Source of the DNA: a virus
Taxonomy: Duplodnaviria > Caudoviricetes
DNA: 64,000 bases
Virus record (IMG/VR): IMGVR_UViG_3300025723_000017
Span: 90,060 to 154,059 of that record
Strand: one strand, 5' to 3'
Shown here: positions 1,965 through 56,256 of the stretch, in pieces
Position numbering within the stretch: the first letter of the stretch is position 1
How the letters are laid out: every line of letters starts with the position of its first letter
The notes under the pieces: model-generated
Databases searched by the model: none
Told to the model about the DNA's origin: nothing
Seen by the model: the letters and a program-made list of their open reading frames with translations, nothing else
Translations under genes and position numbers: made by a program

Positions 1965-2354
1965 CTAAATTACTGTATCTAGATGATACTGTAAGTATGA
2001 TTCTATACAGTGTGGAGATAGAAAAATTTGTGGCCAAAATTTTTTGATCAGCTGATTTAAATCCTGATGAAGTTTTTGACCCCTGGGGTCCTACATAGTG
2101 GAAGAAGATTGATTTATACGATCCAGGATTGACAAAATTGATTTATACGATCCAGGATTGACGCAAAGCTAGTATACATACAATGTATTGTAGCTAAAAA
2201 ACAACACCGGGGTGTCCGAAGTTTTTGAAATAGCTAAATTATAGCATGTAATTTTATAAAATGCAAGCGCATAAAATGCAAGCGCATAAAATGCACGCTG
2301 TAACGCATTAGTACAGCGTAGTGTACATAATGCGTTACAGCGTGCTTGCTACGC

Positions 2355-2969
2355 TTACAGCGTGCTTGCTACGCTTACAGTTTGCTTGTTAGCTGTAATG
2401 CTAACTAAGTTAGCTAGTGCAATAGTGCGCACTTTTACAGTATGTAACACGTTGTTAGCTACGTTGTGCGTTACAGCACTTTGCGCTAGCAGTTTGTTGC
2501 GTGCGCTAGCAGTTAAGTATTGTGCTACTTGTAGCTTAGTTGCTAATTGGCCGTTAATAAAATACATACTGCTAGCGTTGTTAAATATAGCGTATAAGTA
2601 CAGCGCATTAGTTTGCTTGTGCTTAACTATGCTATGTACGTTAGTGTGTGTAAAATAGTTACTTTGCGTTGTAAAGTTAGCTACGTTGCTAGCGTTGTTA
2701 GCTTCAATATTATTTGCACTTTTTTGTACAGCGTTAGCGTAAACGTTAGTAAATGCGCTAATGTTGCTAAAAAGTTGCACGTTAGCACTAACTACTTTTT
2801 TAATGCTAACTAAGTTGTGTTTTGCGCTAGTAGCTACTTGCGTAACGTAGCATACGTTAGCAAACGTAGTGCTTTTGTTAGCAAGTAATACTTGTATAGT
2901 TTGTGCGCTAATTGTGTTAGCGTTAGCGTGTGCTGTAAGTGCTTGTTGTGCTTGCTGTAAATTTAACAT
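2355..2969 (-). CDS. Hypothetical protein nearly lacking D/E/G/P/W
   Basis: 204-aa ORF downstream of a TTGCAA-17-TATAAT promoter; lies in the dinucleotide-depleted tract. Confidence 0.7.
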   Translation of the reverse strand: MLNLQQAQQALTAHANANTISAQTIQVLLANKSTTFANVCYVTQVATSAKHNLVSIKKVVSANVQLFSNISAFTNVYANAVQKSANNIEANNASNVANFTTQSNYFTHTNVHSIVKHKQTNALYLYAIFNNASSMYFINGQLATKLQVAQYLTASARNKLLAQSAVTHNVANNVLHTVKVRTIALANLVSITANKQTVSVASTL

Positions 2970-3015
2970 TTTTGTTTACGCTTATAAAATGTGTTTAAGT
3001 TGTTTACTGCAACTA

Positions 3016-3203
3016 AATTATACTGCTAACTGCGCTAATTTGCAAGTGCTACTTTGTTGCAAAAAAACAACGCTTGCTAACTGCTGTACTGCTTACTATG
3101 CAGTAATTATACTGCTAACTGCGCTAATTTGCAAGTGCTACTTTGTTGCAAAAAAACAACGCTTGCTAACTGCTGTACTGCTTACTATGCAGTAATTATA
3201 CTA
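3016..3203. repeat. 89-bp tandem duplication carrying a minus-strand promoter and a GTTG-N8-CAAC palindrome
   Basis: AATTATACT recurs at 3016, 3105 and 3194 with identical intervening sequence. Confidence 0.9.
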
Positions 3204-3238
3204 CTTGCGTAGCTAATACGCAAGTAGTATTTTGTAAG

Positions 3239-3586
3239 TTATGCGCTAGCAAATAAGCGCAACAATACGCTATTGTTGTCCGTTGTTACAATTTGCGCAT
3301 TGTAACGCTTTGCAATAATTAGCAAGTTAGTGCATACTTGCGCTTTAGCTACTTTAACTGCTATAAACTTAGCACGCAAGTTAGTATAAACACGCTTAGT
3401 AAAATATTGTGCTTGTACTGCTTGCGCTAGTGCTTGCGCTTGTGCGTGTTGTTCGTTTGTGTACAAGTGCGCATTTTTTGCATTTTGCGCTTGCACTTGT
3501 AACACGCTTATATAACGTGCGTGCTTTACAGCGTTGTTTTTTGTTGTTAAAACAACGTGCGCTACTGCTTGAGGCTTTTTTTGCAT
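3239..3586 (-). CDS. Hypothetical protein nearly lacking D/E/G/P/W
   Basis: 115-aa ORF with the same AAGCGTAAACAAAATG leader and TTGCAA-type promoter as 2355-2969. Confidence 0.7.
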   Translation of the reverse strand: MQKKPQAVAHVVLTTKNNAVKHARYISVLQVQAQNAKNAHLYTNEQHAQAQALAQAVQAQYFTKRVYTNLRAKFIAVKVAKAQVCTNLLIIAKRYNAQIVTTDNNSVLLRLFASA

Positions 3587-3943
3587 TTTGTTTACGCTTT
3601 ATAAAATGTTGTTAAGCTACTTGTTTACTGCAAGCTAAATTATACTGCTAACTGTGCTAATTTGCAAGTGCTATTTTGTTGCACGTTTACAACACTTGCT
3701 AACTGCTGTACTGCTGTACTGCAAGCTAAATTATACTGCGCATTGTTTTAATTTGCAAGTGCTATTTTGTTGCAAAAAAACAACGTAATTAACGCTTGCA
3801 ATTTAGCGCAAACGACTTTACAATGTAGTTGTTGTTAGCAGTTAGCAGTTAGCAAGTGTTGTTTTTTTGCAACAAAGTAGTGCTTGCAAGTTAGCGCAAA
3901 ATGCGTTACAATGTAGTTGTTGTTAACAAAAAGGAGCTGTACT

Positions 3944-4174
3944 ATGTTAAATAGCACAAACGTTCGTCGCCTAGGCGAGATGGCGGCAGAATTTGGCCTT
4001 GATTCTTTTTTCAGCACAATGCGAGTGTTGCATAATTGCGACAACAAAGACCAGCTTAATACGCAGGACGAAGCTGTACTGTATAACATAGCAGAGGAAG
4101 CTGTGCAATACGTTGTGCAGTATCAAATGTCAGCACTAAAAGAAGCTTTAGCAGAACTTAACGCTAAAGTGTAA
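3944..4174 (+). CDS. Hypothetical protein
   Basis: AGGAG RBS then ATG 3944; similar to 4263 (VRRL.....E.GLD.F). Confidence 0.75.
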   Translation: MLNSTNVRRLGEMAAEFGLDSFFSTMRVLHNCDNKDQLNTQDEAVLYNIAEEAVQYVVQYQMSALKEALAELNAKV

Positions 4175-4262
4175 CAAAAAAGCACTTGCGTTTTAATAGC
4201 GCAAGTGCTACAATGTAGTTGTTGTGCAGTAAGTAGTTTAACTTTTAACAAAAGGATCTACT

Positions 4263-5764: not shown

Positions 5765-5813
5765 TGCGTCAATCCTGGTTAAAATATTATTATACTGTCT
5801 GGGCTCCTGTCTG

Positions 5814-6080
5814 TCAAGCCCAGGTGATTTCGGTACCCTGGATGGTGTGATCCAGTCCCTGCTCGATGACATAGAGGTCTACGGTATAGCCATTCCGCTT
5901 CAATAGTTTAGAGGCCAAATACCATTCGTTACTAGAGGGGCGCGACCAAAAAGAACCCCCCAATCGAATACCTCGTTTTCCTGACTCCGCGGCATCTTTG
6001 ATCAAGGGATAAACTGCCTCCACCTGTTTTATATGGTCTGATTCCATTAACTGTTTAGCCTCGGCTGCTGTGATCTTCAT
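5814..6080 (-). CDS. Hypothetical early protein
   Basis: Own promoter/RBS; paralogues at 6835-7103 and 22027. Confidence 0.8.
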   Translation of the reverse strand: MKITAAEAKQLMESDHIKQVEAVYPLIKDAAESGKRGIRLGGSFWSRPSSNEWYLASKLLKRNGYTVDLYVIEQGLDHTIQGTEITWA

Positions 6081-6154
6081 AGCGGATTCCTGTTGGGTTA
6101 CTTAACAGTGATTATAACTGACAATGATGTAATTGTCACCCGATAAGATAAGGT

Positions 6155-6388
6155 CTACTCCAGCTCTTTGGTCCGCATCGCTGCGTATATCAATGCCGCG
6201 CTGTCGCGATTGCCCTTTAGGTATGCTTCAACGTAAGGTCGTAACTCCTCGTCAAAATTGGTAAGGTCGTAGTGCTTACAGCCCCCGCATCCGCCCATTG
6301 AATGCTGAATACTTGCGTCCATCATCGCTCGTGCAACCCGTTCCCCAAATTCTTTGACTTCCTCTGATGGGTAGTTGGGCACATTCAT
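6155..6388 (-). CDS. Hypothetical early protein
   Basis: Own promoter/GAGGA RBS. Confidence 0.75.
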   Translation of the reverse strand: MNVPNYPSEEVKEFGERVARAMMDASIQHSMGGCGGCKHYDLTNFDEELRPYVEAYLKGNRDSAALIYAAMRTKELE

Positions 6389-6471
6389 ATTAAATCCTCG
6401 CTTTCGTTCTTTAGTGTACTGTGATTATACCCAAAATTGACGTAATTGTCAACCCCTGTTGAAGAAGTTGA

Positions 6472-6774
6472 CTATTCTGTTGCCGGTTGTCTAGCGGCAA
6501 CGGCTGCAAGTTCAGCGGCATTGTGCTGTTGAGCAGCCACTGTACGCTTGGCTTCCTCATGTATACGAGTTCGCTGTTCTATCATAGCCGCCGCCACCAT
6601 ACGCTTGGCTTCCTCATGTATGCGAGTTCGCTGTTCCATCATAGCCGCCGCCACCTCATATGCCTTTTCCGCTAGACGGTCGTTATCTATTCGTGTTCCG
6701 ACTCGGGCCAACAGTCCCGTCATAGCATGGGCTGCCAACTGATCTAACATCTCACGTTTTTTGTCATCGATCAT
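6472..6774 (-). CDS. Hypothetical early protein with internal 60-bp duplication
   Basis: DQLAAHAMTGLLA...AYEVAAAM; AAAMxEQRTRIHEEAKR occurs twice. Confidence 0.8.
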   Translation of the reverse strand: MIDDKKREMLDQLAAHAMTGLLARVGTRIDNDRLAEKAYEVAAAMMEQRTRIHEEAKRMVAAAMIEQRTRIHEEAKRTVAAQQHNAAELAAVAARQPATE

Positions 6775-6834
6775 AGTCTTGCTCCGTATCGTTTAGTGTA
6801 TAACTATTATAGCCGTTTTTGATTTAATTGTCAA

Positions 6835-7103
6835 CTACCAGGATATTTGGGTACCTGTATCTTCTGTCCGATGTAATGACCGTAAAGACTTCACCTTGAA
6901 CCCTTGTTTTCTTAATAGGTCACAGGCTACAACCCATAGTACTTCGGGAGGATTACTGTCTCCGCCAGTCCAAAAAGGACCCCCAATCGAATACCCCCGT
7001 GACCTTTTGCCGCGGCCTCTTTAATATAAGTATACACCTTAGCTACTTCTTTCTCTGCTTGCTGGAGGGCAAGTTTTCTAGCTGCCTCTGCTGTGATCGT
7101 CAT
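6835..7103 (-). pseudogene. Frameshifted paralogue of 5814-6080
   Basis: G5 run where the paralogue has G6; adding one G restores GIRLGGPFW...LLRKQGFKV...GTQISW*. Confidence 0.75.
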
Positions 7104-7308
7104 TGAGGATTCCTGTTTGTTTACTGTATAGCTATAATAACTGACAATGATTTAATTGTCAATACCACAATGTTCTAATAGTGCCTGCGACAATTCGTCA
7201 CTTAACGTAGGGTTGACGTTGGATTTGATATGTGCTGCCCACACCCTGTACCACCCCTCTCTTACGCGGTCCAGGACCGCTTGGCCCTCAGGGGTTTCAA
7301 TCCAGTCA

Positions 7309-7584
7309 TCATTGATGCACGTCATCATCTACTCCAGTTGTTAATGTACTGTGATTATAACACCTGACTATTAAATTATCAACTGACACAACCGCTGTGT
7401 CAAAGCCCTGTACATACCCCTCCTGGTGACTCAGGGTCATGTGGTGATGAATCCAGGCTTGGAATCCTGCTAGGTCTACCTCCTGAGTTTTTACCCACTC
7501 GTACATCTGGACTTCGGTGATGTCTGCCATCGCATAGGTTTTATTTTTACTTGCTATCTGGTTAGATGAACGAATGTATCGCAT
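7309..7584 (-). CDS. Hypothetical early protein
   Basis: AGGAG RBS, duplicated as a 39-bp tandem repeat at about 7560-7636. Confidence 0.55.
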   Translation of the reverse strand: MRYIRSSNQIASKNKTYAMADITEVQMYEWVKTQEVDLAGFQAWIHHHMTLSHQEGYVQGFDTAVVSVDNLIVRCYNHSTLTTGVDDDVHQ

Positions 7585-7682
7585 AATAACTCCTTTTCTG
7601 GTTAGATGAACGAATGTATCGCATAATAACTCCTTTGAGTGGTAGTCTACTGCTATTATAAACAGAGACGTCGTAATTGTCA

Positions 7683-7834
7683 AATGGTAGAGGGATTCGA
7701 ACCCTCACAGACGAGTCGGTCGTGTTCGCTCGTCCCAACAGTTTTTGCCATGAACACGAGGGATGGGGTTACCCGTCATCTCCTATCCGTATCGGCTCGT
7801 CCACGTCGGCGGATACCATTTTCGCCATACCATA
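7683..7834 (-). ncRNA. tRNA-like RNA with a large insertion replacing the anticodon/variable region
   Basis: Acceptor ATGGTA/TACCAT, D-arm-like GCGAAAATGGTATCCGC, T arm GAGGG-TTCGAAT-CCCTC; internal stems GACGAG/CTCGTC and TCGTGTTC/GAACACGA. Confidence 0.7.
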
Positions 7835-7925
7835 TTGAAATACACTTACTGGATAAACTTGCTACGACTGGGCGTAGTCACCTCTAGTTGGCTTTATCAC
7901 ATCCACTAATAAATGTACTTCAATA

Positions 7926-8041
7926 TGGTGTCTAACGTGGGATTCGAACCCACAATGTGCAACGGTGTCGATGACGTTACCATCATCGGGGGGTTTAAGC
8001 ATCCCACCGCCGTCTGCGACTCTCCAGATCGCCGGATAGAC
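7926..8041 (-). ncRNA. tRNA-like RNA with an expanded, branched anticodon region and encoded CCA
   Basis: Acceptor GTCTATC/GTTAGAC + A + CCA, D arm GCGA-TCTGGAGAG-TCGC, T arm GTGGG-TTCGAAT-CCCAC; about 116 nt. Confidence 0.7.
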
Positions 8042-8415
8042 AAGGTATTAAAATACATTACGCTGGTCTACGTCCAGTTGCGCTTTTGACTTCCATCGCA
8101 TATAAATGTATTTCAATATAACTAGATTATACTAGATGTTGACGTAGTTGTCAACCCGCTTCAGTAATGAAACCCCTAAGCTTCTGCTCCGGCACCGACT
8201 GTAACAACTCCGCCAGGGCAGTCAAGTCTTCATTTCTAATGTCAACCTGTATCTGCAATAACACCATGTCAATTAGGCTGCTGTCCATCGTCTACTCCCG
8301 TTTGTTTACTGTAACTAAATTATACTGAGAATTCCTCAGTCAGTCAAGCGTCGGCAATATTACTCTGCCGACAGATCAACTATGCCGGCAGAGGATACTG
8401 GGGATTACAATGTTG

Positions 8416-8697
8416 TTAATACATTACAATGTTGCTGATACGCAAATACGTGTCGTAACTGCAATAATCACGCTTTGCAGGCATTACACGCACGCGAGCC
8501 TGGGGATAGAGTGCTTGCAAAGCATCAGCAACAAATTGTAGCTGTGCTGGACTAGTGCTGTGATAAAAGCCGTAGGCTACGCTACGCTTGTTAGCGTCTA
8601 GACGACTTGTTTTGTTAGTGTAAGTACACGTAGGGGAGAGGTTAGCGTAGTCTAAGAACTTTTTTGCACTGCTGCGCACTTGTGTAACTGTTGGCAT
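8416..8697 (-). CDS. Hypothetical early protein
   Basis: Own promoter/AGGAG RBS. Confidence 0.75.
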   Translation of the reverse strand: MPTVTQVRSSAKKFLDYANLSPTCTYTNKTSRLDANKRSVAYGFYHSTSPAQLQFVADALQALYPQARVRVMPAKRDYCSYDTYLRISNIVMY

Positions 8698-8752
8698 TAC
8701 TAGCTCCTGTTTGTTTACTGTAAAGTTATTATACTGCGGGTCCGGCCGATTG

Positions 8753-9022
8753 TCAAGCGTTATTTTGCATTAGCTTTTTTAATACTGCTTTGTTGCAGTC
8801 AACCAATGTCAACGCTGTATTACTGCGTTGTTGCAATTTAGCAATGGCGTCAGCAAGTTGACCAGAGGTAGCAGTATCACTAAGAGTAGCGTAGTATAAC
8901 GCATTTCTAGCGTTAAAATTGTTATGTATGTCAGCAGTAACAACGAAAAACTGCGCACTTAAATTCTTCTTAAGACGAACAGTTGCGTACAGTGTATTCT
9001 GTGCAGAGTTTGTGTTTAACAT
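8753..9022 (-). CDS. Hypothetical early protein
   Basis: AAGCGTAGACAAAAATG leader as in the 2.3-3.6 kb genes; stop lies in the next -35 box. Confidence 0.7.
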   Translation of the reverse strand: MLNTNSAQNTLYATVRLKKNLSAQFFVVTADIHNNFNARNALYYATLSDTATSGQLADAIAKLQQRSNTALTLVDCNKAVLKKLMQNNA

Positions 9023-9114
9023 TTTTGTCTACGCTTATGAAAAATTGTTTAACTTGTTACTGTAAAACTATTATACTGCCTAACTAACTAATAGTCAAGC
9101 AGTATAACATTACG

Positions 9115-9441
9115 TTAGCAAAAAATGTCGTCATGCAGTGCATAGTCCATGTACATAGTGCCGTCTTCTAGCACCACTACGCTTACATTGTTAGTGTAGC
9201 AACTTGTGCTGCCGCTCATATCGCCCATTACTGCCAACGCCTCTACTACTTGCACGCTAACAATTTTGTCTGCAATATTAGCAAAGTCCTGCACTGTGTC
9301 GTATGCGTCCTCGTCCAGTGTGTAGCACGCCAGCAACGCTGTGTCGTCTCCGTCATAGTCTTTAACATCGTCTGCTATGTCAGTGTTTTTAACTTGCGTT
9401 AGCTTAATAAACTGCTTGCCCAAATCTTGTGCTATAAACAT
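9115..9441 (-). CDS. Acidic hypothetical early protein
   Basis: GGAG RBS; TTGCAA-17-TATAAT promoter. Confidence 0.75.
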   Translation of the reverse strand: MFIAQDLGKQFIKLTQVKNTDIADDVKDYDGDDTALLACYTLDEDAYDTVQDFANIADKIVSVQVVEALAVMGDMSGSTSCYTNNVSVVVLEDGTMYMDYALHDDIFC

Positions 9442-9675
9442 ATACGCTCCGTTTTGTTTACTGTAACTAAATTATACTGCTAACTACGCTAATTTGCAAG
9501 TAGTGTTTTGTTGCTGCTCAACAACACTAACTAACTGCACTACAACTAGATTATAAAGCAGTATTATTAAAAAGTCAACCCCTTCAAAGTGTTGTATGTA
9601 TACAACATTGATAAAGCTCTTGACAATTACGTCATTATGCACTATAATTATTTAAGTTAACAAACGGGACAAATT

Positions 9676-27303: not shown

Positions 27304-27611
27304 ATGATTGACAATTACAGCATTTGGTTTTATAATTAATTTTTAATTAAACAATTTAAATTTGAGACGTGACGAATGATCGCCATAATTATGCTTTATA
27401 TTATTGGATTGCTGGGGTTTTTTACACTATTAATGGTGCCTTCTGCATATAAAGAACAGGGAATTGCGTCTGCCATTTTACACATAATTGTTGCGATGAC
27501 GATTTTATCAGTTCCTGTTTTTGTTTTGATACTGTAATAATTAATATTTTTGTTTGACAATTAAATCATCCTCATTTATAATTAACTTATATTAAACAAA
27601 CGGAGTATGTA

Positions 27612-27812
27612 ATGAACGAGCAAATTCTAAAACTTTTAGAGCAATCGGGACTACAGCCTTATTATCCAGCTCAAGAACAACAAATTGAACAATTTGCTCA
27701 GTTGCTGGTTCGGGAATGTCTAACAGTAATCAATCAACCCAATGGTGTTGGCGATGATGATGTTATTCGAATCAGTAATGATGTACAACAATATTTCGGA
27801 GTTGAAGAATGA
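27612..27812 (+). CDS. MNE...GVEE family protein
   Basis: Family motifs; own promoter. Confidence 0.8.
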   Translation: MNEQILKLLEQSGLQPYYPAQEQQIEQFAQLLVRECLTVINQPNGVGDDDVIRISNDVQQYFGVEE

Positions 27813-53490: not shown

Positions 53491-56256
53491 TTATATTAAT
53501 ATATTTCGTTTGGGATACATTAAGTAACGGTTAGCTGCATCAGTGTTAGTATCACTATCAGCTGGACTATTAAATGTAACACTGCCATAATCAAACTCTG
53601 TTGCAACACCAGGAACCACTGTGATATTCCAGGATGCACCAGTTCCAGATCCTGAAATAGTAACACCTGCTAATGCTGAATAAGCGGTATTTGCAGCAAA
53701 TAAATTGGCAGTGCCTGAATAAAATACACTGACAATTGCACCAGTATTATCTACGGTGTTGACAACAATTAATATATCGTTAGCAGGAGTTGTACCGCCG
53801 AGTTCTGTGCCTACAATCTTAATTTGATCACCTACACTATAGCCCATTCCTGCTACCGCTATACCAATATCATAATGATAATTAATATCAAATGTGGTTG
53901 ATTCTGGTGGACTTGGAATCCACTGTTGTATAGCTGGATCCCAATTCACTGTCATTGAATTATCTAATTCATAACGATCAGCTTCAAAGTCAACTAGATT
54001 CAACTGTGTTCCGTATTGTGTTTGTATGTTATACTGTATCTGTCCAGATGCACCTGGTATTGTATAAGCAATGACCCACGCTGGAGTGAATCCCAATACA
54101 TTACCATTAGACTGTACTGACTGCATCCATAGTGGCAACAGGTCACTTTCTTGACCAACTACGTCAATCACCTGATTTCTCATGTTATCTAATGAGTTGG
54201 GATACACTACATCAACCGTTTGATTTTCAATAGGATAAGCCAGTACAACTTCTTTGTCTACACTTACCCCACTATTATTAACTAAATTATCAATGATTTC
54301 TGAATAAACTACTTCATATACAATCTTGCCTGTGATAGGATCAACTGCTTGTGCAGTTTTGATCTCGCCTAATGTTAAGTTTTTCCAATAGTGATTGAGC
54401 TGTAATGCTGTAAGATATGTAGCCGCAGTCGCTGCATTTAATCCATAAGCATGATAATAAATGACGTTTTTAGACAATCCAAAGTTAGGATCATCAGATC
54501 GATATAATAATGCTGGTGTAAAAATAGTAGGATTATTGACCAAACTGTTGATTATTTGTCTGTCATTAGATGGTGGCATACATTGTATGTATAAACTTTG
54601 ATATGGAGTATCGTATGTACGTACAACATCTATCGTGAAAGTTTTATAAACATTAACGTATCCACTGGGAGTAAACGCATTAACTGTAAAGGTATAGGTT
54701 AAATCAAAAGTTGTGGTATTAGCATCAAACGTAGTTGTTCCATTGTCTAATCCAAATGCATTAAAGCTCACACGTCCAACAATGTTACCTGAAGATAATA
54801 AGGTCAACCCCTGTGGCAAACGAGAATTAGTACCAGATGCCAAACGATATTGTAAATTTACATTAGCGGTAGTAGTTGCTTCAACAGTAAACATACTGGT
54901 AGAACCATTACTGATTTTGCCCATATATGATGGAGTAACCCAAGTTACGTTATATGCTATTGGGCCAGTTACAGTTAAACTGTAATACTGCGGGTCACTG
55001 GTTACATCAGGAGTTTCGACAATGTAAGCAGTTACTGAAAAATTATAAATCTGTTGGGATAATCCTATTGTGGGCAAATATCCAGTTAACCATCCGGTAG
55101 TTGCATCAAGATGTAGTCCAGTGGGAATCGATACTCCTATAAATCCAACTGCATCACCGGCAATGTTTCTTGCTTTAAATTGATAAGCAAAATACGTGTC
55201 GCTAGGTGCATTGCCAATACTACCCGGTGGTGTAAGCATTACAGGAGGATCTAAGTCAGATATCGAAGCGGTCAAATATGAATTGTCGGCAGTGATGTAA
55301 GTAGTTGTAGCATCAAATGCCTGTGTACTCCAAACATATAAACTAAATGTTCTCAATGAAGAGGTACGACCATCTGTAACTTGTAATGTAAATTGATAAT
55401 TGACACTGGGAGATTCCACGTCAAAATCAAACGGATATTCACCAAATCCTTGCCCGGTAACACTGAATCCAGGAATAGTTGCACTTGGCGGAAATCCAAC
55501 ATATCCTGATATTAGCCCTGTGCTACTGATAGATAACCCTGGTGGTAATGATCCCGCAACTAAACTAATTGATGGGGGAATATTAGCGGGATTGTCGTCA
55601 GTATATTCAAGCTGAATTCCTGGCTGTAGTAACTGCCCTTCCCAAAGTTGGTCTAATTCGCCAGCTGGGGTGATCCACGAAGGGAAATTTTGACTAGAGA
55701 CTGTTATTGTAAATGTTCTATCAGTCAACCGATTGGTAACAGTTGTACCGCCAATCGTTTTGGTCGTATAAGCGCGAATAGCAAATTTGCTAGTGACATT
55801 TTTTCCTGCTACAATTGCTTCGTCTGCCACAGTAACTACGTTGGTTGGGACTCCCTGTATGACTCCATTGGTAGTACATTCAATACCCGAAGGCAACGCT
55901 CCAGCAATAGGTTCGTAGTAAATTGTAGATGGCACACTGGTAATTGTACCGCCACTGATCCACTCTCCTGTAGCATTACTGGTATATATAACTTGAGTTT
56001 GAGTGCATTTTATTACAGTAAATGTACCATTATACTCTGAAGGATCTACTCCGGCAACTATGATACTATCACCAGGTTGAAAAATAAGTGTGGGCTGTGG
56101 ATAAAAAACTATGGTAACAGTTGATCCATTGCCTGTAATACTGTTAATGTTAATAGTAACAGCATCCGTTGCTTGCAATGGTACTTGATAAAAACTGCCC
56201 TGTTGTACAGTGCCTAAACTGCCCGGAGGAGTAATCCAAATTGGTTGTGATGACAT
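53491..56256 (-). CDS. Large virion protein with repeated Ig/cadherin-like modules (baseplate-like)
   Basis: Repeats of P.W.TP.GSLG and LP.GL.L...G.I.G; 921 aa. Confidence 0.75.
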   Translation of the reverse strand: MSSQPIWITPPGSLGTVQQGSFYQVPLQATDAVTININSITGNGSTVTIVFYPQPTLIFQPGDSIIVAGVDPSEYNGTFTVIKCTQTQVIYTSNATGEWISGGTITSVPSTIYYEPIAGALPSGIECTTNGVIQGVPTNVVTVADEAIVAGKNVTSKFAIRAYTTKTIGGTTVTNRLTDRTFTITVSSQNFPSWITPAGELDQLWEGQLLQPGIQLEYTDDNPANIPPSISLVAGSLPPGLSISSTGLISGYVGFPPSATIPGFSVTGQGFGEYPFDFDVESPSVNYQFTLQVTDGRTSSLRTFSLYVWSTQAFDATTTYITADNSYLTASISDLDPPVMLTPPGSIGNAPSDTYFAYQFKARNIAGDAVGFIGVSIPTGLHLDATTGWLTGYLPTIGLSQQIYNFSVTAYIVETPDVTSDPQYYSLTVTGPIAYNVTWVTPSYMGKISNGSTSMFTVEATTTANVNLQYRLASGTNSRLPQGLTLLSSGNIVGRVSFNAFGLDNGTTTFDANTTTFDLTYTFTVNAFTPSGYVNVYKTFTIDVVRTYDTPYQSLYIQCMPPSNDRQIINSLVNNPTIFTPALLYRSDDPNFGLSKNVIYYHAYGLNAATAATYLTALQLNHYWKNLTLGEIKTAQAVDPITGKIVYEVVYSEIIDNLVNNSGVSVDKEVVLAYPIENQTVDVVYPNSLDNMRNQVIDVVGQESDLLPLWMQSVQSNGNVLGFTPAWVIAYTIPGASGQIQYNIQTQYGTQLNLVDFEADRYELDNSMTVNWDPAIQQWIPSPPESTTFDINYHYDIGIAVAGMGYSVGDQIKIVGTELGGTTPANDILIVVNTVDNTGAIVSVFYSGTANLFAANTAYSALAGVTISGSGTGASWNITVVPGVATEFDYGSVTFNSPADSDTNTDAANRYLMYPKRNILI

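Follow-up and report, generated by a model that had tools for sequence, protein, structure and literature searches.

Selection against short motifs is a familiar feature of viral genomes, as in the avoidance of palindromes by phages and the depletion of CpG in RNA viruses. Short steps are also read in other ways. Guanine hypermodification has been described at GA and GGC in phage CAjan, where the modified base is preQ0 (PMC7544227), and modified G in GA and/or GG has been reported for the Pseudomonas jumbo phage PA5oct (PMC12191111), which depends on the RNA polymerase of its host (PMC7318152). On nascent RNA, each of the six primary clefts of Rho binds one 5′-YC dinucleotide (PMC5314796), and Rho avoidance has shaped coding-strand composition (PMC13323073). 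Here we describe a 1.7-kb tract of an uncultured phage (Caudoviricetes, IMG/VR record IMGVR_UViG_3300025723_000017) written almost without GR steps (G then A or G) or YC steps (T or C then C), the latter pairing opposite GR on the other strand. The record is a contig of 154,059 bp, a viral fragment about 45% complete, and the coordinates below are those of a 64-kb window within it (contig positions 90060–154059). By large terminase the nearest cultured relative is PA5oct (53% identity), which has the gene order RNR, ligase, ClpX, S21, hsp, ClpS and ClpP in common with the contig.

Between positions 2230 and 3930 only nine of these steps were counted (GA 2, TC 3, GG 2, CC 2), compared with 316 expected from base composition (91, 105, 70 and 49, respectively). 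A first-pass annotation, made from the sequence alone, had estimated about nine by eye, and the computed figure agrees. A contig-wide scan of 200 nt windows found this to be the sole tract of its kind (2192–3991 as scan windows), the other low window being a codon-biased tail-fibre gene at the contig start. GC content is 37.3% in the tract and 38.1% in the genome. The longest stretch with none of the four steps is 575 nt, and UC and CC are missing from the minus-strand RNA over 1022 nt. Eight of the nine surviving steps within 2228–3932 fall at five codons, for glutamate (E) and glycine (G) in open reading frame (ORF) 204 and for proline (P), glutamate and aspartate (D) in ORF115, with the ninth at 3814. 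The tract is limited on the left by the hairpin of a leftward terminator and on the right by the Shine-Dalgarno (SD) site of the first rightward gene (3931–3934). Its features, with promoters predicted by sequence scan, are as follows.

about 2228–3932, both strands: GR/YC-free tract, placed by step counts, the contig scan and the positions of banned steps
2194–2215, minus strand: intrinsic terminator of the leftward unit, stem 2204–2208/2211–2215 followed by a U run; contains CC/GG
2297–2341, minus strand: hairpin in the 3′ untranslated region, a 13-bp inverted repeat (2297–2309/2329–2341) of allowed steps only, read from the sequence; terminator-like sites at 2281–2299
2355–2969, minus strand: ORF204, conserved protein of 204 aa, net basic, with one E, one G and no D, P or tryptophan (W)
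2970–2992, minus strand: ORF204 leader without SD site (ATAAGCGTAAACAAAA-ATG), read from the sequence and compared with relatives
3045–3017, 3134–3106 and about 3224–3196, minus strand: three tandem promoters for ORF204, the third read by eye
3239–3586, minus strand: ORF115, second reduced-alphabet protein, 115 aa, with one D, one E, one P and no G or W
3667–3639 and 3758–3730, minus strand: two tandem promoters for ORF115, TTGCAA-N17-TATAAT
3796–3912, plus strand: two promoters at 3796 and 3884, TTGCAA-N17-TACAAT
4155–4254, plus strand: intergenic promoter module of the rightward operon, 100 nt without any of the four steps, between two normally coded genes

Read leftward, the order in this sigma70-driven unit is two promoters, ORF115, three promoters, ORF204, the 13-bp hairpin and the intrinsic terminator. 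The signals obey the ban along with the genes. As first reported from the letters alone, the leftward −35 boxes read TTGCAA, 17 nt before TATAAT, at 3045, 3134, 3667 and 3758, with a fifth promoter reading TTGCGT-N17-TATAAT at 3224; those at 3045 and 3134 sit within 98-bp direct repeats. The leftward modules recur in inverted form as the rightward promoters at 3796 and 3884, downstream of which lie ordinary genes from 3944. Elsewhere in the genome at least seven promoters match TTGACA-N17-TATAAT perfectly, GA included, hence the tract truly overrides the −35 consensus. The ribosome-binding consensus is lost too, as had been suspected: the leaders of ORF204 and ORF115 read ATAA(A)GCGTAAACAAA(A)-ATG without SD site, compared with AAAGGAG in neighbouring genes. 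The near absence of D, E, G, P and W from both proteins likewise holds.

ORF204 has 307 homologues in public metagenomes, and 73 of these loci were retrieved and their steps counted on the coding strand. They fall into three states: a full ban, a one-strand ban (TC and CC only) and no ban. Full-ban examples (L001, L004, L035, L050) show 0/0/0/0 banned steps, a one-strand example (L055) shows 0/0/35/25, with TC and CC absent and GA and GG normal, and an unbanned example (L003) shows 44/21/38/25 and encodes an ordinary protein with 14 D, 6 E and 6 G. Proteins under the one-strand ban possess D, E and G and lack P. None of the counted loci banned GA and GG alone. Among 20 non-redundant full-ban genes DNA identity is only 55–76%, yet each has 0–2 banned steps. 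Comparing unbanned with banned homologues, D is replaced by N, Q, A or T, E by T, A or Q, G by N, S or A, W by Y, and P by A, with E to K only once in about 105 cases; these are not products of C-to-T or G-to-A transitions, which excludes a deaminase footprint. At the SD position full-ban homologues have AAAG followed by TGT or similar, whereas homologues without the full ban have AAAGGAG. As AAAG is kept and only the GGAG part is lost, the SD site was sacrificed to the ban, and for the same reason we rejected the SD-less state as a cause, rather than a consequence, of the GR ban.

In a maximum-likelihood tree of the family, unbanned forms are basal, one-strand forms make up one clade and full-ban forms one large clade (support 97/97), which holds several partial relaxations; the grouping may be helped by amino-acid composition bias. 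Extended sequence context as the determinant of which steps survive in the partly relaxed homologues was rejected, no pattern being seen. One homologue under the one-strand ban (L064:6001–6576) has an in-frame stop inside the matched stretch. ORF115 homologues adjoin ORF204 homologues in nine loci, nearly all with the full ban and with at most three GA.

Judged from sequence, the ban is the result of selection on the nucleotide sequence, and neither of hypermutation nor of restriction-site avoidance. Selection is indicated because GC content is unchanged, the replacements are not transition products, the ban has been kept in 20 lineages, and the −35 and SD consensus sequences are overridden; the first-pass annotation had argued for selection over mutation alone from the −35 box, and this part of it is borne out. 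Furthermore, other short palindromes are enriched in the tract, including GCGC (13.5 versus 1.1 per kb in the genome, 12-fold), TGCA (15.9 versus 5.3, 3-fold) and ACGT, AGCT, CTAG and GTAC (each about 2-fold), with GCTAGC present five times, hence the dinucleotide step itself and not the restriction site is the rule; GATC, CCGG and TCGA do not occur. With four of the 16 dinucleotides removed, the −35 box has lost its consensus, the ribosome-binding site is gone and the proteins do almost without five amino acids, which makes the ban one of the strongest local sequence constraints we know and points to a specific molecular reader.

The one-strand form is not confined to relatives. A second early unit of the same genome carries it, with a partly relaxed gene beyond.

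9040–9549, minus strand: second unit with one-strand ban, 510 nt without TC/CC on the mRNA strand, GA/GG normal
9115–9441, minus strand: ORF108, very acidic protein of 108 aa (18 D, 3 E and only 5 lysines) with a GGAG SD site; gene without TC/CC
8753–9022, minus strand: ORF89, partly relaxed (YC 0.33 and GR 0.50 of expectation), with an SD-less leader as in ORF204 and ORF115

The YC-free run of this unit (9549–9040) starts at the transcription start of the promoter at 9578–9550. Similarly, in the relative L064 a perfect TTGACA promoter that contains both YC and GR leads into a transcript that is YC-free from about +1. In the one-strand forms of relatives, as in the 9549–9040 unit, the ban follows the direction of transcription. 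Across relatives the YC-free stretches span several co-oriented early genes (up to 3 kb), and the GR-free stretch is a subset of the YC-free one, centred on ORF204 and ORF115. The co-transcribed genes under the one-strand ban mostly encode small, very acidic proteins, whose function needs GA codons. ORF108 is of this kind; it lies behind tandem early promoters, has only three close homologues in a large protein database, and by analogy looks like an early DNA-mimic-type protein. At the codon junctions of the one-strand genes YC occurs six times against 160 expected, and GR is at 0.77 of expectation compared with 0.92 in control genes. Full-ban loci have a different boundary, as the ban starts 20–70 nt upstream of the −35 box, in DNA untranscribed from these promoters. 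We considered whether antisense read-through by the flanking operon could make the ban symmetric. This fits the window itself, where the plus-strand YC-free run ends just inside ORF76, but was rejected as the orientation of the neighbours varies in relatives.

As the GR step is avoided on both strands, something in the infected cell must read exactly that step. We consider the phage's own guanine modification the most likely candidate for this reader. Our preferred reading, to which we give a probability of roughly 40%, is that the tract is an immediate-early unit for the host RNA polymerase in a PA5oct-like jumbo phage, kept free of modification and thereby readable by naive host polymerase. 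Virion DNA of the phage group would carry guanine hypermodification aimed at GA and GG. Selection keeps the unit GR-free on both strands from about 50 nt upstream of the promoters through the terminator, which would let the naive polymerase bind the promoters and read the template at once. Alternatively, host enzymes that nick or cut at modified bases could not interrupt such a unit. The step disturbed by modification might be promoter binding or elongation, or modification-sensing nicking or cutting enzymes might act, blocking transcription mainly via template-strand lesions. The template strand would then be under the strongest pressure, with the promoters, and the non-template strand for the most critical genes, protected as well.

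The template strand appears to matter most because in many relatives and in the second unit it alone is GR-free, the mRNA lacking UC and CC. The codon-junction avoidance of GR in one-strand genes fits one pressure that is strong on the template strand and weak on the other, and counts so close to zero suggest harm from every single site. Guanine modification is ranked first because one duplex-level reader of GR covers both pairs of steps, both strands, the promoter DNA and the modules of PA5oct described below, and no such reader other than guanine modification by the phage itself is known in this phage group. The banned steps, GA and GG on both strands, match the short target motif (G then A/G) of deazaguanine systems, and the target steps of CAjan and PA5oct are, on either strand, those banned here. 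We infer both the modification of G at GR in this phage and an adverse effect on transcription, exerted by the modification or through its recognition. In this respect one part of the stealth segment proposed at first pass, that it was possibly DNA left unmodified, is retained as the leading explanation.

Similar modules were found in PA5oct (MK797984.1), where we counted GR/YC-free runs of at least 45 nt with GC content of at least 25% and compared them with block-shuffled controls that keep local base composition. The early terminal-repeat region (1–50 kb) has 15 such runs compared with 0.44 in controls, and a late 50 kb has three compared with 0.64. The runs are intergenic and approximately the size of a promoter footprint; unlike in our tract, where ORFs comply too, only intergenic modules comply in PA5oct. 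One intergenic stretch of 105 nt (PA5oct 27594–27698, 48% GC) has no GA, TC, GG or CC against 25 expected and is written in a GCGC/AGCG/GCTG style like that of the tract. CAjan (NC_028776.1) shows a weaker enrichment: eight runs of 60 nt or longer lack GA and TC (1.0 expected), but runs lacking all four steps are not enriched (2 versus 1.8); a 60-nt stretch without the four steps (53678–53737) lies inside its small early gene gp74.

The evidence against guanine modification is substantial. Within the window, ORF76 and ORF77 lie behind compliant promoters and are nevertheless coded normally, and the perfect TTGACA promoters retain their GA. In the relative L064 the promoter that drives the YC-free transcript is itself full of YC and GR. 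We know of no effect of 7-deazaguanine-type bases on bacterial RNA polymerase. Early ORFs of PA5oct and its untranslated long non-coding RNAs (lncRNAs) defined by RNA-seq show no depletion, hence modified templates are evidently transcribed there. No TGT/DpdA, QueC, QueD/PTPS, radical-SAM/QueE or FolE gene was detected in the 154-kb fragment or in the fragments of four relatives. The same search finds two PTPS genes in PA5oct. At the site just upstream of ClpX that is syntenic to FolE-QueD of PA5oct, this phage has neither gene. PF01702 (TGT/DpdA) gave no match in the contig or in the records of five relatives, all of them fragments (8–45% complete), nor in PA5oct itself. The absence of modification genes is weakened by the roughly 55% of the genome that is missing and by possible supply from the host. 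The position directly upstream of ClpX (genome 72817–74481, L075:17818–19482, outside the window) is occupied by a 554-aa ORF with no PHROG family.

Rho is the leading rival explanation. A transcript without UC and CC cannot be captured by Rho, and the first genes would therefore be transcribed to the end, even if translation lags or is blocked. The dinucleotides banned from the RNA are exactly the recognition unit of Rho (PMC5314796). The YC ban on the coding strand is moreover the commoner and stricter form, with no homologue banning GR alone and GR-free stretches lying inside longer YC-free ones. It follows transcription and starts within a few nucleotides of the transcription start in two independent units (9549 and L064), and YC is absent from the untranslated leader and spacer of the rightward operon (runs 3454–3964 and 4131–4257) but not from its translated ORFs. 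The absence of YC from the RNA strand alone, beginning at the transcription start, is however the one-strand form, and the ban of the tract also covers the promoter DNA and the other strand. Rho leaves unexplained why GA and GG are banned from the same strand, why the SD site was lost and why full-ban units extend the ban into promoter DNA that is not transcribed. Nor does it account for the strand-symmetric modules of PA5oct, a phage with normal YC in its untranslated lncRNAs. A second, RNA-level reader of GA/GG, such as a RegB-like or G-specific RNase, or CsrA, would have to be invoked for the additional ban in ORF204 and ORF115. ORF108 is YC-free despite its good GGAG SD site, a role for antisense read-through is unsupported given the varying orientation of the neighbours, and zero YC exceeds what Rho would demand because Rho needs several YC. 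Known Rho avoidance is a statistical purine or C-below-G bias across whole genomes (PMC13323073). The present ban is absolute and limited to three or four genes, includes promoter DNA and GA/GG, and leaves C above G (22% versus 17% in full-ban ORF204 mRNAs; 21% versus 16% in the ORF115 family). As an explanation of the ban we regard Rho as doubtful. Rho and modification pressures may both be acting.

A weak lead towards Rho comes from protein structure. The AlphaFold model of ORF204 is predicted with confidence (predicted local distance difference test, pLDDT, 91.4; predicted template modelling score, pTM, 0.85) and has an Sm-like barrel core. Its best structural match is the Rho inhibitor YaeO/Rof (6jie_A; Z 6.5, root-mean-square deviation 2.4 over 69 residues), on a par with many Hfq, Sm and WYL domains (Z 5–6), and the Z score is below the trustworthy level. 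The predicted β-barrel core superposes on YaeO/Rof, Hfq and WYL, but ORF204, with 204 aa, has extra helices and strands and no sequence similarity to them, hence we treat the likeness as a lead and not as a finding. The ORF115 model matches generic α/β sandwiches only. Searches with ORF204 found no homologue among cultured phages (megablast, tblastn), no match of its profile to sequences in PDB and no Foldseek hit in PDB below E 0.1, while the BFVD structure search returned only uncharacterised phage proteins and the protein atlas nothing usable. Neither ORF204, ORF115, ORF108 and ORF89 nor the homologues without a ban matched Pfam or PHROGs.

A further alternative is some other transcription-linked reader of YC/GR with single-hit kinetics. 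Where DNA is heavily transcribed, its exposed strand could be attacked by an endonuclease, glycosylase or single-stranded-DNA deaminase of host or phage origin; other candidates would be an endoribonuclease that cuts at these steps and an Alc-like factor that halts polymerase wherever sites are unmodified. The tract genes could be the countermeasure or the source, kept free of the target. A hazard attached to each site fits the near-absolute absence, with 0–2 steps per 600 nt across 20 diverged lineages; asymmetry between the strands goes with transcription, and five tandem strong promoters imply extreme transcription of the unit. The small, very acidic proteins of the one-strand genes are also reminiscent of DNA-mimic anti-restriction proteins. 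Ocr and ArdA are early proteins of this type. No candidate enzyme was found in the window or in the literature searched, ORF204 and ORF115 lack nuclease or deaminase features in sequence and structure searches, and a mutagenic deaminase is excluded by the replacement spectrum. We regard such a reader as unlikely. In a broader form, the proposal would be that an undescribed transcription-coupled reader of YC/GR acts in cells infected by widespread uncultured jumbo phages, the recoded genes being a countermeasure. Such a reader might belong to host immunity (a nuclease, glycosylase or deaminase), be Rho serving as a barrier to viruses, or be an Alc-like shut-off factor made by the phage. This too is a doubtful proposition, although if true it would mean that whole first-expressed genes have been rewritten to give natural, well-folded proteins of a 15-letter alphabet.

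Stealth coding against defences that read duplex DNA, another part of the first-pass proposal, is not supported. Many restriction sites and protospacer adjacent motifs (PAMs; NGG, CC, TTC) contain the four steps, the target of DarT is TNTC, and the missing GATC, CCGG and TCGA would be in keeping with it. The enriched palindromes and the five copies of GCTAGC speak against it, and about 270 other genes of the contig have no such protection. Duplex-reading enzymes also fail to explain why the ban is strand-specific and oriented by transcription in relatives and in the second unit, and a one-strand ban that begins where the transcript begins is unexpected for enzymes that read either strand of the duplex. 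We consider stealth coding highly improbable. Known motif avoidance in viruses is alike in that selection removes short words read by a cellular factor; it differs in that here two dinucleotide pairs are removed from one unit, with a transcription-oriented partial form, five amino acids stripped and palindromes enriched. Finally, hypermutation by an APOBEC- or DddA-like deaminase that turned C into T at YC on either strand, with no selection involved, would account for the depleted context (YC, with GR on the complement, is the classical deaminase context) but is refuted as far as sequence data can tell, as GC content is unchanged, the ORFs have not decayed and are conserved across more than 300 homologues with a confident model for ORF204, TTGACA cannot become TTGCAA by transitions, E to K is almost absent and the ban persists despite the divergence of the full-ban genes.

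Full-text searching of the literature found no paper on GR/YC-free tracts of this kind, nor on modification-free islands, or on whole genes and proteins recoded to stay unmodified. New here are the three-state series within one protein family and its replacement spectrum, the contrast between a boundary at the start site in the one-strand form and one that takes in the promoter in the full form, the enrichment of compliant modules measured in PA5oct and the lack of deazaguanine genes at the syntenic site. Should guanine modification be the cause, the islands would show that hypermodified DNA hinders host polymerase or survival in the first minute of infection, and the modification motif could be read from sequence alone in uncultured phages. 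Should it be Rho or an unknown enzyme, they would mark the genes that the phage must express first. The family, with its full-ban, one-strand and unbanned members, is a natural experiment in recoding, and ORF204 would show, as far as its model can be trusted, to what extent D, E, G, P and W can be removed while a protein still folds.

Several minor features were observed in and near the tract. On the minus strand, 5789–8756 holds a run of at least seven perfect 12/12 matches to the sigma70 consensus, each preceding a small gene that reads leftward; full agreement with the consensus is uncommon, and the tract differs in this with its TTGCAA promoters. Only about 35 nt before the terminator hairpin lies another promoter-like site, TTGCAT-N17-TATAAT (2194–2267, minus strand, −10 at 2244–2239), which may yield a tiny RNA or be vestigial. 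Just left of the tract (2108–2165, plus strand) a motif of about 27 nt (ATTGATTTATACGATCCAGGATTGAC) occurs twice in direct orientation, its second copy overlapping a weak rightward promoter-like site (TTGACG, 15-nt spacer, TACAAT). Every compliant promoter is preceded by a palindrome, GTTG-N8-CAAC (GTTGCAAAAAAACAAC), roughly 10 bp from its −35 box (3056, 3145, 3678, 3769, 3858 and 9510), which could be an UP element or a regulator site.

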